Source: an uncultured Pseudomonadota bacterium
GTDB lineage: Bacteria > Oederibacteriota > Muellerivitia > Muellerivitales > Muellerivitaceae
NCBI GenBank assembly: GCA_963843375.1
Contig: CAWJKT010000006.1
Span: forward strand, 96,001-160,000
DNA: 64,000 bases
Direction: 5' to 3'
Part shown: positions 37,943 to 43,142 of the stretch, in pieces
Position numbering within the stretch: position 1 is the stretch's first letter
Layout of the letters: each line of letters opens with the position of its first letter
Program-made: the position numbers and the translations under genes
The notes under the pieces: generated by a model
What the model was told of the DNA's origin: nothing
Database searches by the model: none
What the model saw: only the letters and a program-made list of their open reading frames with translations

Positions 37943-39463
37943 TCAACCAATAGCAAAAAGTTTTTTCTGGTTATTGGACAAAGAGGGATTCTCCTCCAAA
38001 ACCTTAATTGTTTGTAACCGTCCATCCGACTGGCCATTGATTCGGGCTCCCGAATCCAAAACATTCATTAGATAACTATAGATTTCCTGGGTGATAACCT
38101 CCCCGGGACAAAGAACCGGGATACCCGGGGGATAGGGACAGACAATTTCCGCGCATGTTTTCCCCACCGACCGTTTAAACGGAATTTTACGCGTTAATTT
38201 GGTCAAAGCTTCGCGGGGATTCACTTCTTTACGGGGGATAAAGCTCGGAAAAACGATCCTTTTGCGTTTCTTTTGGTTCATAAACATGTCTTTATAATCC
38301 ACCACAATTTTTCTTAAGGCTTTCACAAACTTCTTCAACTCCTTGGGGGTGTTCCCGATGGAAACAAAAAGAAGGACATTCTGAAAGTCGGCCATCTCAG
38401 TCTGGATTCCGTACTCGGAGTTCAATATCTTTGCCATGTCATATCCCGAGCATGGAAGACCTTTGGTTGAAACAGTAAGTTTCGTCACATCCAAATCCAA
38501 GTTCGGAATTTTACGGACCTGCTCTCGGGTGAGACAGGCTAACCCCGGTATTTTATTGACCTCATTTCGGGTTTCTTCGCACATCTCAATCACTTCACCC
38601 AGGGCTTTTTCCCCGCCTTGGACCATTTGATAACGTGATAAATCCAAAGAGCCAAGAATCACATAGGAAGGACTGGTCGTCTGGAGCATTTGAAGTGTTG
38701 TTTTGAGTCTTAAAATATCGACCCGAACCCCCTTCACATGGAGCATGGATCCTTGACTTAACGCCGCCAAATGTTTGTGGGTGGATTGAACGCACATGTC
38801 GGCCCCGGAATCAATCGCCGCTTTGGGAAAGGAAGGGTGAAAATGAAGGTGCGCTCCGTGGGCCTCGTCCACTAAAAGGATTTTGTCGTATCGATGGACG
38901 ATTTCGGCTATCGCTTCAACGTCGGTGGTTAAACCAAAGTAAGTCGGGTTCGTCACCAGGACGGCTTTGGCGTCAGGATTTTGGCGACAGGCCTCCTCCA
39001 CCTGCTCGGGGGTCAGATTTAAAATCAAATCGGAATTTTCATCGATTTTCGGCATGATATAAACCGGTTCGGCACCGGCAAGGATAACCGCCGAAATGAC
39101 CGATTTATGGGCGTTACGGGGAATAATAATTTTATCCCCCGGATCGCAAACGGACAAAATCATGGCTTGGTTTCCGCCCGTGGTTCCATTGACTAGGAAA
39201 AAGGAATAATCCGCCCCATAGGCTTTCGCGGCCAATATTTGAGCTTCCTTGATGACGGAACTGGGCTCATGAAGCGAATCAACCTCGCTCATGACCGAAA
39301 GGTCGAGTCGGAACACCTTATCCCCTACAAATTGGCGGAATACCTTCGGCATTCCCTGACCATGCTTATGCCCAGGTGTATGGAATGAAATTTTATTTTC
39401 GTTGGCGTATCGAACAATTGCGTCAAAAAGCGGGGTTTTGTCTTGGCCGTCATAGAGTGACAT
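37943..39463 (-). CDS. PLP-dependent fold-type I Arg/Lys/Orn decarboxylase (Bacillus SpeA-like)
   Basis: FHTPGHKHG, LVNGTTGGNQ, RNAHKS, VDEAHGAH, QSTHK (PLP Lys), TTSPSY and PYPPGIP. Confidence 0.92.
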   Translation of the reverse strand: MSLYDGQDKTPLFDAIVRYANENKISFHTPGHKHGQGMPKVFRQFVGDKVFRLDLSVMSEVDSLHEPSSVIKEAQILAAKAYGADYSFFLVNGTTGGNQAMILSVCDPGDKIIIPRNAHKSVISAVILAGAEPVYIMPKIDENSDLILNLTPEQVEEACRQNPDAKAVLVTNPTYFGLTTDVEAIAEIVHRYDKILLVDEAHGAHLHFHPSFPKAAIDSGADMCVQSTHKHLAALSQGSMLHVKGVRVDILRLKTTLQMLQTTSPSYVILGSLDLSRYQMVQGGEKALGEVIEMCEETRNEVNKIPGLACLTREQVRKIPNLDLDVTKLTVSTKGLPCSGYDMAKILNSEYGIQTEMADFQNVLLFVSIGNTPKELKKFVKALRKIVVDYKDMFMNQKKRKRIVFPSFIPRKEVNPREALTKLTRKIPFKRSVGKTCAEIVCPYPPGIPVLCPGEVITQEIYSYLMNVLDSGARINGQSDGRLQTIKVLEENPSLSNNQKKLFAIG

Positions 39464-40408
39464 TTATTTGGAATTCTTCTCCTCTCCTATAAATCGATAG
39501 GTCAAGGGTTTATTATCCCGGATAATATCCTTAATTCTTGAAAAGCCATCCCGAATATACTTAGGGACGAAAAAAATGCCTTCATGAGTTTCCCCGTCGT
39601 AATATTTTAAGGGGCCCACTTTGCGTTCCTTCAACACACGGTTAACGTAATCCCTTTTCAGGGCTTTGGGATCCATCGTCTTGGAAGCCATGGTAAAACT
39701 CCAGGGAATATCAAAAGACGGGACATTAGCCGGCCAAGAATAAACCATGGGGAAAACTTTTTTCAAGGTATTATGAACCGCCGCAAGACAGCGAAGTTCC
39801 TTCTCTGCCGAGCAACCCGATTGAAGGGCAACCATTCCGTTTTCCGAGAGTTTGCTGGACACCATCCGGTAGAATTCCTCGGTATAAAGAAGGTATGCTG
39901 GCCCCGCTTCCACCGGCTCGGGTATATCAATGATGATAACGTCGAATTTTTCTTTGCTTTTTTCCAAAAATTTACGGCCGTCTTTAAACATCAAGGTTGT
40001 TCTTTTGTCCTTAAAGGCTCCCCGATGCCATTCGGGCATATATTCATCACAAAGTTCCACAACCCTCTTGTCGATATCGATCATCCAGGCTTTTTCAACC
40101 GTTTTATGGCGAAGTACTTCATAAAGAGTGGCGCCTTCCCCGCCCCCGATAATGACTACATTTTTCGGATTAGGACAGGTCACCATGGCCGGATGCACCA
40201 GATTTTCGTGATAAATAAACTCATCCACTTGAGCTGATTGCATATGGCCATCTAAGATCAGGCATTTGCCATAATGGTTGGATTGAATGACTTCTACTTT
40301 TTGAAAGGGCGTCTTTTCGGAGGCGTAAATTTTAGAAATGCCGCGCATATGAGCCTCGTCAGGCGCATAAAACTCTATATGCCAATGCGGACTAATGGTG
40401 TCGGTCAT
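39464..40408 (-). CDS. speE: Polyamine aminopropyltransferase
   Basis: LDGHMQS..DEFIYHE.LVHP, IIGGGEGAT and D.PEP..GPA..LYT.EFY; abuts the decarboxylase gene. Confidence 0.93.
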   Translation of the reverse strand: MTDTISPHWHIEFYAPDEAHMRGISKIYASEKTPFQKVEVIQSNHYGKCLILDGHMQSAQVDEFIYHENLVHPAMVTCPNPKNVVIIGGGEGATLYEVLRHKTVEKAWMIDIDKRVVELCDEYMPEWHRGAFKDKRTTLMFKDGRKFLEKSKEKFDVIIIDIPEPVEAGPAYLLYTEEFYRMVSSKLSENGMVALQSGCSAEKELRCLAAVHNTLKKVFPMVYSWPANVPSFDIPWSFTMASKTMDPKALKRDYVNRVLKERKVGPLKYYDGETHEGIFFVPKYIRDGFSRIKDIIRDNKPLTYRFIGEEKNSK

Positions 40409-40503
40409 GAAAGAAAGTCTCCAATCGGAGTATTTTATAAAATTAAAATAAGGGTCTTTTTGTGTATCCTAAAGAACTAGAAAATTTCTTCAAATTAAGA
40501 AAC

Positions 40504-40543
40504 AAAAAAAAAGCGAGACGTTAAATAGGTGTTAACGGCTCGC
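40504..40543 (-). terminator. Intrinsic terminator inside the speE 5' leader (attenuator)
   Basis: RNA reads GCGAG-C-CGUUAA-CACCUAU-UUAACG-U-CUCGC-U9; no annotated minus-strand gene ends upstream of it. Confidence 0.85.
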
Positions 40544-40657
40544 TGCTGTCGTGGCTAAAGGTAGATTGGCGAATTGCCTCTGTGGGAGTTGTATAAAAAC
40601 CACGCTTCACTTTCTTCGAAGTTACAAAATCCGAGCGATTTTCTATGAACTTTCTCA

Positions 40658-40685
40658 AGTATAAAACGATACATTATACTGTCAA
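40658..40685 (-). promoter_or_regulatory. Sigma70 promoter of the speE operon (TTGACA-N16-TATACT)
   Basis: Near-consensus -35 and -10 boxes on the minus strand. Confidence 0.75.
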
Positions 40686-40793
40686 GAAAAAAGATGTGTT
40701 TTTGCCGCAATTTTGAAAAATGAATTAAATTTTTTAAAATTATTCATTCGATTTTTTCGAAGAAGAAATAATTTCATAAAAAAGGACACACCT

Positions 40794-43142
40794 TTGATTA
40801 AGCAGCGCATCATTTCGAGATTCTTGAACATCTTTATGATCTTTTCCGTTTTTTTTACACCATTAGTGTTCTTCACTCGCGGCCATGATCAATTCGAACT
40901 TCCGAAATTAACATTTTTAATGGTTCTGCTGCTTCCCGGGGCGCTTTTAGCTCTTAAAAACAAGGGATTTTCCTCTCCCACGCCCCTTACCCTTTCTCTT
41001 TGCTTTTTGGCCTTCACCCAAATTTTGGCTTCCCTGCCCCAAACAAGCCTGAGTTGGAGTACGAGTTTGTTGGGAGACTATGAGAATTTCTCGGGTTTGG
41101 TGACTTTATTCACCTACCTCGTTGTATTTCAAATTTTAAGCCTTTATTTAACCGAAGACAGGATTGAAAGAATTTTTTATTTCATCTCCCTGGCAGCCAT
41201 TTTTTCTTCGCTATACGCGGTTGGTCAACATTTCAGGTTTGATTTCATTCAATGGAACCCGGAAACAATGAATTCCGCTCGGGAATTTGCGGCTTTGGGA
41301 AATCCTAATTTTCTTTCCGCTTATTTGGCGATGTCGATACCCATTTTCCTCTCCCAATCCCTCAAAATCTCGGCGCCGAACGCCTCATCCACAAGGTCGC
41401 CCGGGCCGCTATTTTGGTTTTTAGCCTTTCTGGGTTTTTCTTTTCTTCTTTTCGGAACCGATCAAGGCTTTCTGCTTTTTCACCTGAAACCTTCGGCCCT
41501 TTCCAACTCTATTTTCAGGATCATTGGATTGGTTTTGTTTTCAATAGCCTGCGTCCGATTGATCCTGTGGCGCCATTGGTTGACAACCATTTCCGGTTTG
41601 GCCATTCTGGGCCTCGGACTTTTCTGTACGGCTAGTCGAGGTGGATTCTTAGGGGCCCTTTTCGGCCTGGGGATTTGGTTTTGGCTGACTTTAAGGAAAA
41701 ATTACTTTTTAAACTCAATTCGCCGCTATTTTTCCGAGATCCCGCGGATTTTTCTCTTCTTGTTAACGATTTTGACCCTGACTTTGCTTATTTTCATCGG
41801 CCACGGTTTTTTAAACCGTCTTTTCGATTCCGTCATTCATATGGGGCAAAGTCTCGCAACTTCCCGTTTACATATTTGGCGGCCCGCTTGGTGGATCGTA
41901 GAAGCCAATCCCCTTTTGGGGGTGGGTTTGGACAATTTCAAGATCGCATTCCCTTATTACAGCGGAATCGAATTTAACGAAATTGACGGTATGTTCACCA
42001 GTTCCCGGATGGCTCACAATGAATTATTACAAATGGCCTCGACAACCGGATTGTTGGGCCTGGGCGCCTATCTGAGCGTTCTGGTCGCTTTTGGAACCCT
42101 TTGGTGGAAAACTTACCGGGTTTCGAACCCTTCAGTTCAATGGTTCCTCATCGCTGTACTTTCATCCGCCGTGGCTTTTCATGTCCAAAACTTCTTTAGT
42201 TTTGGGGTCACATCGATCAACCTGGTTTGGTTTTTACTATTGGCGATTGTTCAAAACCAATATCGTAAAACTTTAAATCCCTCAATTTCCGAAGGTTCCG
42301 GTTTGTATTTCTATTCCATGGGTAAAAAAATCGGCCTCGTTCTTTTTATAATCCTAGGCTTCTTTTTTCCCCTAAGTCGCCTGGGCGCCGATATTGCTTT
42401 CAACCAAGGCAATGCGGCCTCTCAAATAATGAAGAATCCTGATCCCGATATCTCTAATTCGGATTTGATTTCTTATTCCGATTATGGGATCAACCAATTG
42501 AAAAAAGCCGTGAACCTTTGCCCTTTGGAAGTTAAATATCGTCTTTATCTTGGATTAGCCTATGAACAAAGGGCCCACATCGACCCGGAAAGATCCCAGG
42601 ATTGGAATTTAACGGCTCTTGAGTGTTATGAAAAATCCATCGAAATGAGCCCTGCCAACGCCTATTACTACAACAATGAAGGCCGGGTCGAGGACTCTTT
42701 GAGCCATACGGACCCCCGATATCTTTCCCAAGCGGAACAAGCCTATCAAAAAGCGGTCCATTGGGATCCTTCCAGCCCCTATTTCATCGTCAACTGGGCC
42801 ATCGATTTGGATAAATTGGGAAAAACGACCGAGTCTGAAAGTGAACTTAAGCGGGCGTTTCAATTGGACCCTGTTTTTACGTCTAAAATTCTTTCTCAGA
42901 TGGCATTTGAGCAATACCAATCCGGGGACAAGCAAAAAGCTTTTGAATTTCTGGATGAAGCGATCAAAGGAAATACTTCCAGCGCCGAAGCCTATTATTG
43001 CCGGGGAATGATTAATTTGTCCGAAAAGAAAAAAAAGGAAGCCCTTGAGGATTTCGAATCGGCGAAAGACCTGCATCCCACCCCTGAAAAAAATCCTTCC
43101 ATACAATCACTCGATCAATTTATCGATCAGGCCAAAGAGTAG
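40794..43142 (+). CDS. O-antigen ligase/Wzy_C-family membrane protein with C-terminal TPRs
   Basis: LGNPNFLSAYL, TASRGG, R..IW..NPLLGVG..NF and AHNELLQ, then TPRs; probable TTG start after AAGGA. Confidence 0.87.
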   Translation: MIKQRIISRFLNIFMIFSVFFTPLVFFTRGHDQFELPKLTFLMVLLLPGALLALKNKGFSSPTPLTLSLCFLAFTQILASLPQTSLSWSTSLLGDYENFSGLVTLFTYLVVFQILSLYLTEDRIERIFYFISLAAIFSSLYAVGQHFRFDFIQWNPETMNSAREFAALGNPNFLSAYLAMSIPIFLSQSLKISAPNASSTRSPGPLFWFLAFLGFSFLLFGTDQGFLLFHLKPSALSNSIFRIIGLVLFSIACVRLILWRHWLTTISGLAILGLGLFCTASRGGFLGALFGLGIWFWLTLRKNYFLNSIRRYFSEIPRIFLFLLTILTLTLLIFIGHGFLNRLFDSVIHMGQSLATSRLHIWRPAWWIVEANPLLGVGLDNFKIAFPYYSGIEFNEIDGMFTSSRMAHNELLQMASTTGLLGLGAYLSVLVAFGTLWWKTYRVSNPSVQWFLIAVLSSAVAFHVQNFFSFGVTSINLVWFLLLAIVQNQYRKTLNPSISEGSGLYFYSMGKKIGLVLFIILGFFFPLSRLGADIAFNQGNAASQIMKNPDPDISNSDLISYSDYGINQLKKAVNLCPLEVKYRLYLGLAYEQRAHIDPERSQDWNLTALECYEKSIEMSPANAYYYNNEGRVEDSLSHTDPRYLSQAEQAYQKAVHWDPSSPYFIVNWAIDLDKLGKTTESESELKRAFQLDPVFTSKILSQMAFEQYQSGDKQKAFEFLDEAIKGNTSSAEAYYCRGMINLSEKKKKEALEDFESAKDLHPTPEKNPSIQSLDQFIDQAKE

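Follow-up and report, generated by a model that had tools for sequence, protein, structure and literature searches.

Organization of the speE locus

The window, by which we mean the whole stretch of 64,000 nucleotides that was analyzed, comes from the genome denoted G000 and carries on its minus strand a two-gene operon for a spermidine synthase (SpeE) and a PLP-dependent decarboxylase, headed by a promoter and a leader that contains an intrinsic terminator (Table 1). Within the family, the orthologs of speE are 76–95% identical and were present in 30 of the 31 genomes, and the decarboxylase next to speE is 75–96% identical. In 34 of the 37 related loci that were examined, the decarboxylase gene comes immediately after speE, whether or not the loci also contain speD, the gene for AdoMetDC. 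A second and distant SpeE paralog (~36% identity) lies outside the window at G000:C6:324861-325520, and most genomes of the family contain a similar one.

A preliminary description of this DNA, made from the letters alone, had read the leader as a candidate riboswitch or attenuator of a polyamine operon. It had placed a divergent gene next to the leader, and the open reading frame of the O-antigen-ligase/TPR protein indeed lies there on the plus strand, so that the terminator can act solely on the speE–decarboxylase transcript.

Table 1. Features of the speE operon, its leader and the adjacent gene, in coordinates of the window
Feature	Position	Strand	Remarks
Divergent O-antigen-ligase/TPR protein	40713–43142	+	Pfam: Wzy_C and TPR domains
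Sigma-70-type promoter, TTGACA-N16-TATACT	40658–40685	-	11 of 12 consensus positions; TTGACA 40685–40680, TATACT 40663–40658
Transcript 5' end, very probably the former speD 5'UTR, including hairpin 1	40615–40657	-	Comparison with relatives
Very probable relic of the speD (AdoMetDC) 3' end, including stem 2	40532–40614	-	Homology by nhmmer and blastn
Intrinsic terminator: 13-bp interrupted stem, 7-nt loop, U9	40504–40544	-	Very probably inherited from the speD stop-codon region
Spacer from terminator to speE	40409–40503	-	Shine–Dalgarno GGAG 40422–40419; motif AGGATACACAAAAAG 40470–40456
speE, spermidine synthase family	39464–40408	-	Pfam: Spermine_synth, E 1.3e-46; Spermine_synt_N; ATG at 40408
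PLP-dependent Orn/Lys/Arg decarboxylase, closing the two-gene operon	37943–39463	-	Pfam: OKR_DC_1, E 3.7e-89

The near-consensus promoter that the preliminary description had reported upstream of the leader was recovered as the top of five promoter-like sites in a consensus scan of positions 39300–41200, where shuffled sequences averaged 3.7 sites. In the speE upstream sequences of the family genomes, a promoter of the same type was present in all 29 leaders. Across these 29 genomes, the −35 box lies between 78 and 616 nt from the ATG of speE, and in the lineages with short leaders (78–126 nt) the same promoter stands immediately before speE. Between the terminator and speE (40503–40409), the consensus scan gave no promoter-like site; a second promoter in this place had been named in the preliminary description as a sign that the leader is an independent small RNA. 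The spacer was also inspected by eye for a promoter of the sigma-54 or another type, an idea that was dropped because the spacing is wrong.

The promoter region has two further features. An inverted repeat in the promoter spacer, GTATAA-N9-TTATAC, overlaps the −10 box (within 40652–40685) and recurs in roughly half of the genera, and a promoter-like site on the plus strand, TTCTCA-N17-TATACT (40652–40680; 9 of 12 consensus positions), points toward the divergent Wzy_C/TPR gene. These could be an operator or overlapping divergent promoters.

Homology of the leader to speD

When 61 related genomes were searched at the DNA level, nearly the entire leader aligned with that of a sister species of the same genus (G001), at 75% identity, and many genera aligned to the promoter block alone, at 77–90%. 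Three relatives (G008, G017 and G007) have an intact speD between the same promoter and speE, and a fourth (G022) has speD in the same position with one in-frame TGA; the matches of the four genes to the AdoMetDC family PF02675 have E values of 1e-36 to 1e-43, those of the three intact genes 1e-41 to 1e-43. When the fronts of these four operons were made into an nhmmer profile, leader positions 72–307 aligned to profile positions 398–632 (E 3e-12), and in a blastn comparison window positions 40612–40532 matched the 3' end of the G008 speD with 74% identity over 81 nt (E 4.7e-6). In all, positions 40614–40409 are homologous to three successive elements of the speD operons, namely the final ~60 nt of speD, the hairpin with its U-run found at the stop codon, and the speD–speE spacer, which corresponds to the spacer 40409–40503 of the window. 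About 23 codons of the ancestral frame are left in the window, preceded by an in-frame TGA and ending in a TAA (40534–40532) whose place with respect to the hairpin is that of the stop codon in the intact speD genes. No match to PF02675 was found anywhere in G000, which is 80% complete, and the absence of speD leans also on the sister genome, which is 99% complete.

Because of the homology across 40614–40409, the leader before speE is very probably the relic of a deleted speD together with its old terminator. The loci share the same flanks, the promoter on one side and speE on the other, and the coding capacity has been lost from the homologous segment in the window.

The loss of speD does not appear to be confined to this genus. 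PF02675 was found in 4 of the 31 family genomes. Among metagenome loci, L137 (cut at its 5' end) and L141 contain speD and L138 contains its 3' end alone; other genera have speD relics with varied 5' boundaries (profile positions 371–421) or none. In a quick single-gene nucleotide tree of speE, the backbone of which is weakly resolved, the loci with speD are scattered among those without it and the outgroup (L068) carries speD, which suggests that the loss has been recurrent and has run from the ancestral to the derived state. The speD of G022 (locus L004), with its in-frame TGA, is followed by a degraded terminator hairpin (−5.7 kcal/mol, z +0.7), and its congener G012 has already lost the gene; this looks like a loss in progress.

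Conservation of the terminator

The terminator consists of the arms AGCGAG-C-CGUUAA and UUAACG-U-CUCGCU around the loop CACCUAU (40544–40512, minus strand), with the T run extending to 40504 and the U-run ending 95 nt before speE. The hairpin has 13 pairs and is followed directly by the nine U's, as in an intrinsic terminator. Its predicted free energy is −13.6 kcal/mol in comparison with −5.8 ± 2.1 kcal/mol in shuffled sequences (z −3.6), and 1 of 300 shuffles was as good. A simple terminator scanner did not list the hairpin at 40544–40512, probably owing to its internal mismatch.

A hairpin closing on a U-run was found at 12 of 14 homologous sites, with a mean z of −2.2 and with differing stem sequences; the exceptions were G022, whose speD also has the internal stop codon, and G014, whose hairpin is weak. 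The basal arms vary by lineage, for example AGCGAC/GUCGCU, AGGCGUCCG/CGGAUGCCU and ACGGC/GCCGU. In an alignment of 11 sequences, RNAalifold predicted eight pairs, of which five are basal pairs of the terminator, and three of the eight change on both sides. Beyond the terminator base, the only structure that this alignment gave in the spacer toward speE was a helix of 3 bp. The distance from the end of the hairpin to the ATG of speE is 97–109 nt in 11 loci, some of the ATG positions being inferred from tblastn offsets. The strong terminator with nine U's that the preliminary description had seen about 95 nt before speE was thus confirmed by its stability and by its retention in relatives.

Two other observations concern this region. 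Some 45–60 nt past the terminator, a motif ending in GACACACAA(G) is common to the speD loci and often forms the 3' arm of a small hairpin; it was seen in the spacers of L009, L039, L040, L137, L138 and L141, and its counterpart in the window is AGGATACACAAAAAG (40456–40470). We also compared positions 40350–40760 with contigs of four public DNA runs. Three of the runs match the window exactly over the part that they cover, and their contigs are interrupted at the T/A homopolymer (40503–40512); one contig has 10 T's instead of 9, with an extra A at 40503. The fourth run comes from a more distant relative, and the runs gave no variation usable for covariation.

For a neutral reference, we used the 4-fold degenerate sites of speE in the single species pair G000/G001, 63 of 116 of which are identical (54%). 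Against this baseline, the promoter (28 of 28 positions identical, Fisher p below 1e-6) and the terminator segment (41 of 50, Fisher p 0.0008) are clearly conserved, and the terminator stem differs at one position, where a G–U pair is retained. The 5'UTR (33 of 43, Fisher p 0.01) and the relic (49 of 70, Fisher p 0.04) are also above neutral identity. The first ~14 nt of the 5'UTR are identical in the two species, and the block GAGAAAnTTCrTAAC recurs across genera. The spacer after the terminator is about neutral (51 of 98, 52%; Fisher p 0.78). As the stem has remained nearly unchanged while neutral sites have diverged to 54% identity, the terminator is, by all indications of the alignment, real and maintained by selection in this genus.

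The comparison bears on the possibility that the leader is inert throughout, a relic without present function, and that the terminator, like the rest, has merely not decayed yet. The terminator and most of the relic have been lost from most speD-less lineages of the family, and the differing lengths of the relics resemble stages of decay. However, a 26-nt stem is unlikely to have stayed intact by chance at neutral identities of 54% and 52%, and the one change in it keeps its pair; the conservation of the terminator segment and of the promoter likewise speaks against inertness. We consider an inert leader improbable.

Outside the genus, the terminator is less regular. When the 45 nt before the U-run were considered, 20 of 46 distinct upstream stretches had no hairpin with a U-run and 8 more had a weak one. 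In our own reading of the table of family genomes, a clear homologous terminator is present among those without speD in G000, G001, G012 and G016 alone. The exact layout seen in the window occurs in just two sequences. Since most speD-less genomes have no clear homologous terminator, speE can evidently do without it in most of the family, which speaks against the attenuator model described below.

Secondary structure upstream of the terminator

The preliminary description had proposed that two helices upstream of the terminator, together with a contact between a loop and the terminator, form a new ligand-binding element. Hairpin 1 (40652–40619, minus strand) and stem 2 (CGUGGUU, 40604–40598, with AGCCACG, 40556–40550), the latter enclosing AGA-GGC-AAUUC-GCC-AA-UCU, are present in the sequence as described, and ViennaRNA predicted both, as well as the terminator. 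The loop GCUCG of hairpin 1 is complementary to CGAGC (40542–40538) in the 5' arm of the terminator, also as described. In the nascent RNA lacking the 3' arm of the terminator, this pairing is predicted to form together with UUGU–ACAG (5 + 4 bp) as a nested alternative to the terminator, and the sister species allows a similar pairing; between the two sequences compared, GCUCG/CGAGC has one single-sided change, C to U, which retains a wobble pair and counts neither for nor against the contact.

The helices upstream of the terminator have few marks of a conserved RNA structure. The candidate aptamer (40652–40545, 108 nt) folds at −18.3 kcal/mol in comparison with −17.9 ± 2.8 kcal/mol in shuffles (z −0.13), 89 of 200 of which were as good. 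The preliminary description had called for an alignment of leaders from relatives as a check of conservation and covariation. Our alignment of 12 homologs, 7 coding and 5 relics, begins with the Met-Lys-Arg-Gly codons and reaches the U-run, and RNAalifold found no consensus pairs in it. Stem 2 and its inner helix were paired in 53.0% of cells, in comparison with 51.4 ± 1.6% in shuffles (121 of 500 as high), and their covariation score was 0.198 against 0.171 (61 of 500 as high); with the partners slid by −3 columns, 48% of cells were still paired. Between the window and the sister species, the arms of stem 2 show single-sided changes only, the inner GGC/GCC hairpin is not kept in the sister, hairpin 1 has −5.5 kcal/mol in the window but −2.1 kcal/mol in the sister, and the two leaders are predicted to fold differently. 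A stabilizing 5' hairpin was considered as a feature of the family and rejected, as a hairpin of −5 kcal/mol or better occurs within the first 45 nt of only 20 of 42 leaders.

The search for known families agreed with the preliminary description, which had matched none by eye. No Rfam family reached its gathering score in the whole 64-kb window, and a cmscan of 40350–40760 at E values up to 10 returned only weak matches to the unrelated families PISRT1, STnc410 and mir-991, and no SAM-I. We conclude from these comparisons that hairpin 1 and stem 2 are, as far as their sequences tell, features of leftover sequence, and that the leader upstream of the terminator holds no conserved aptamer.

It is therefore very unlikely that the leader is a ligand-sensing riboswitch, with an aptamer built from hairpin 1, stem 2 and the loop–terminator contact that would bind a polyamine, a SAM derivative or arginine and thereby control formation of the terminator. 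The attraction of the riboswitch reading is that a terminator stands in the leader of polyamine genes with no known family matched, that an alternative pairing is predicted in the window and possible in the sister species, and that between the two species the part of the leader ahead of the terminator has changed less than neutral sites have; terminating spermidine riboswitches are also known from Bacillota (PMC10853860). But relatives have coding sequence homologous to the supposed aptamer, and its helices behave much like those of shuffled sequences; in the sister species, hairpin 1 is weaker and the inner hairpin is not kept. The anti-terminator contact has 5 bp, and nothing resembling SAM-I was matched. 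What stands of the preliminary reading as a riboswitch or attenuator of the polyamine operon is, judged from the comparisons, the promoter and a selected intrinsic terminator; the ligand-sensing aptamer is not supported.

Read-through could in principle be coupled to translation, as in pyrBI, with a ribosome that finishes the upstream frame (GTG 40603 to TAA 40534–40532 in the window, speD in relatives) blocking the hairpin. In every family speD locus that was read, the stop codon does fall where the 5' arm ends or the loop begins, and the TAA is kept in the ancestral frame in both the window and the sister species. Nevertheless, we regard this mechanism as highly improbable: the relic frame of the window has neither ATG nor Shine–Dalgarno sequence but a GTG only, that of the sister species has neither ATG nor GTG, the two peptides differ at many positions, and in L135 the frame continues through the terminator.

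A model for the expression of speE

The observations can be joined in a model in which the ancestral operon comprised the promoter, speD, speE and the decarboxylase, with a hairpin and U-run on the stop codon of speD, ~100 nt ahead of speE. The lineage of the window would then have lost most of speD by deletion. The promoter and the beginning of the 5'UTR would have stayed, as would the final ~23 codons, which no longer code, and behind them the terminator and the spacer. With this deletion, the intercistronic terminator would have become a leader attenuator: the near-consensus promoter would fire strongly, most transcripts would stop at ~148 nt, and the fraction reading through would set the level of speE–decarboxylase mRNA.

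That speE and the decarboxylase are transcribed through a leaky terminator is suggested by the conservation of the promoter, the lack of a later promoter-like site in the consensus scan, the neutral evolution of the spacer and the use of the same promoter in short-leader lineages. Most likely, then, speE depends on this promoter and on partial termination. We think that the joint statement, the origin of the leader from speD together with the present role of the terminator as a leaky attenuator between a strong promoter and speE–decarboxylase, is probably correct. Against the attenuator role, a terminator of −13.6 kcal/mol with nine U's could be highly efficient, and speE would then need another promoter, one invisible to the consensus scan.

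Such a promoter, in the spacer, is assumed by the alternative that the leader is a separate RNA of ~148 nt, either a dead-end transcript or a small RNA made from the speD relic. The strong appearance of the terminator fits this alternative, as does the conservation of the promoter, leader and terminator above the neutral level within the genus, which a functional short RNA would show, and the hairpin of the speD-bearing relatives could end a monocistronic speD transcript. Yet 40503–40409 has no promoter-like site and is 52% identical between the two species, and in the short-leader lineages the same promoter is the sole one before speE. Elsewhere in the genome there is no second copy of the leader or obvious target, the other matches having E values of 0.0265 or worse. 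We therefore regard a separate RNA as unlikely, though not negligible.

The leaky attenuator does not by itself explain the conservation of the 5'UTR and the relic, as a plain relic does not account for their excess over the neutral level. The excess could reflect a regulated element, and it is possible that read-through of the terminator responds to an effector. If the hairpin between speD and speE had been a regulated attenuator throughout the family before speD was lost, and the decayed 3' end of speD had been adopted as a sensor in this genus, the retention of the relic and the 5'UTR above the neutral rate would be accounted for. We give this scenario a small chance; if true, a dead gene would have given rise to an anti-termination element, riboswitch-like or controlled by a protein, that answers to a signal of the polyamine pathway. 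Most likely the element is of an ordinary kind, an intrinsic terminator that serves as the attenuator of a leader, and it is its history that is instructive.

Implications for riboswitch discovery and polyamine metabolism

The anatomy of a riboswitch, with promoter, hairpins, terminator and biosynthetic genes in order, can come from the deletion of a gene. Comparison with relatives exposes such an origin, which is relevant to pipelines that search for riboswitches in single sequences. The case also records the turning of an intercistronic terminator into a leader terminator.

A metabolic puzzle of this uncultured phylum lies alongside. SpeE is kept, with little change, in 30 of the 31 family genomes and AdoMetDC (PF02675) in 4 of 31. 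The substrate of SpeE is decarboxylated SAM, the source enzyme of which is missing from most of the genomes, and this puts the origin of that compound, or the real substrate of SpeE, in question. The eukaryote-type AdoMetDC family, PF01536, gave no matches (0 of 5), but the control genomes likewise gave none.

Comparison with known systems

In a literature search on riboswitches, spermidine synthase and speE, the sole relevant case was the spermidine riboswitch that is a variant of SAM-I. As described by Salvail et al. 2023 (PMC10853860), it has 13 examples in Bacillota, acts as an off-switch by premature termination and represents the only validated class of spermidine riboswitch. It resembles the speE leader in standing upstream of polyamine biosynthesis genes and in using an intrinsic terminator as its platform, and differs in its four-stem, SAM-I-like aptamer. 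The speE leader has no SAM-I match and evidently no conserved aptamer, belongs to a different phylum and is very probably the relic of a gene.

The polyamine genes give the leader a context like that of the speF element and the potC motif, cis-regulatory RNAs of Rfam that occur near polyamine genes, but neither these nor any other Rfam family reached its gathering score in the 64-kb window. Leader-peptide attenuators are known from polyamine and pyrimidine operons, speFL and pyrBI being examples. The speE leader is like them in having a frame that ends in or beside a terminator hairpin ahead of biosynthetic genes, and unlike them in that its relic frame has no conserved start codon, Shine–Dalgarno sequence or conserved peptide.

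A further known arrangement is the partial intrinsic terminator inside an operon, which sets the ratio of upstream to downstream gene expression. The relatives with speD are alike in that a hairpin and U-run lie between speD and speE, there is one promoter, and the distal genes need read-through. The window differs in that, as the comparison with these relatives indicates, the upstream cistron is gone and the terminator has come to stand in the leader.
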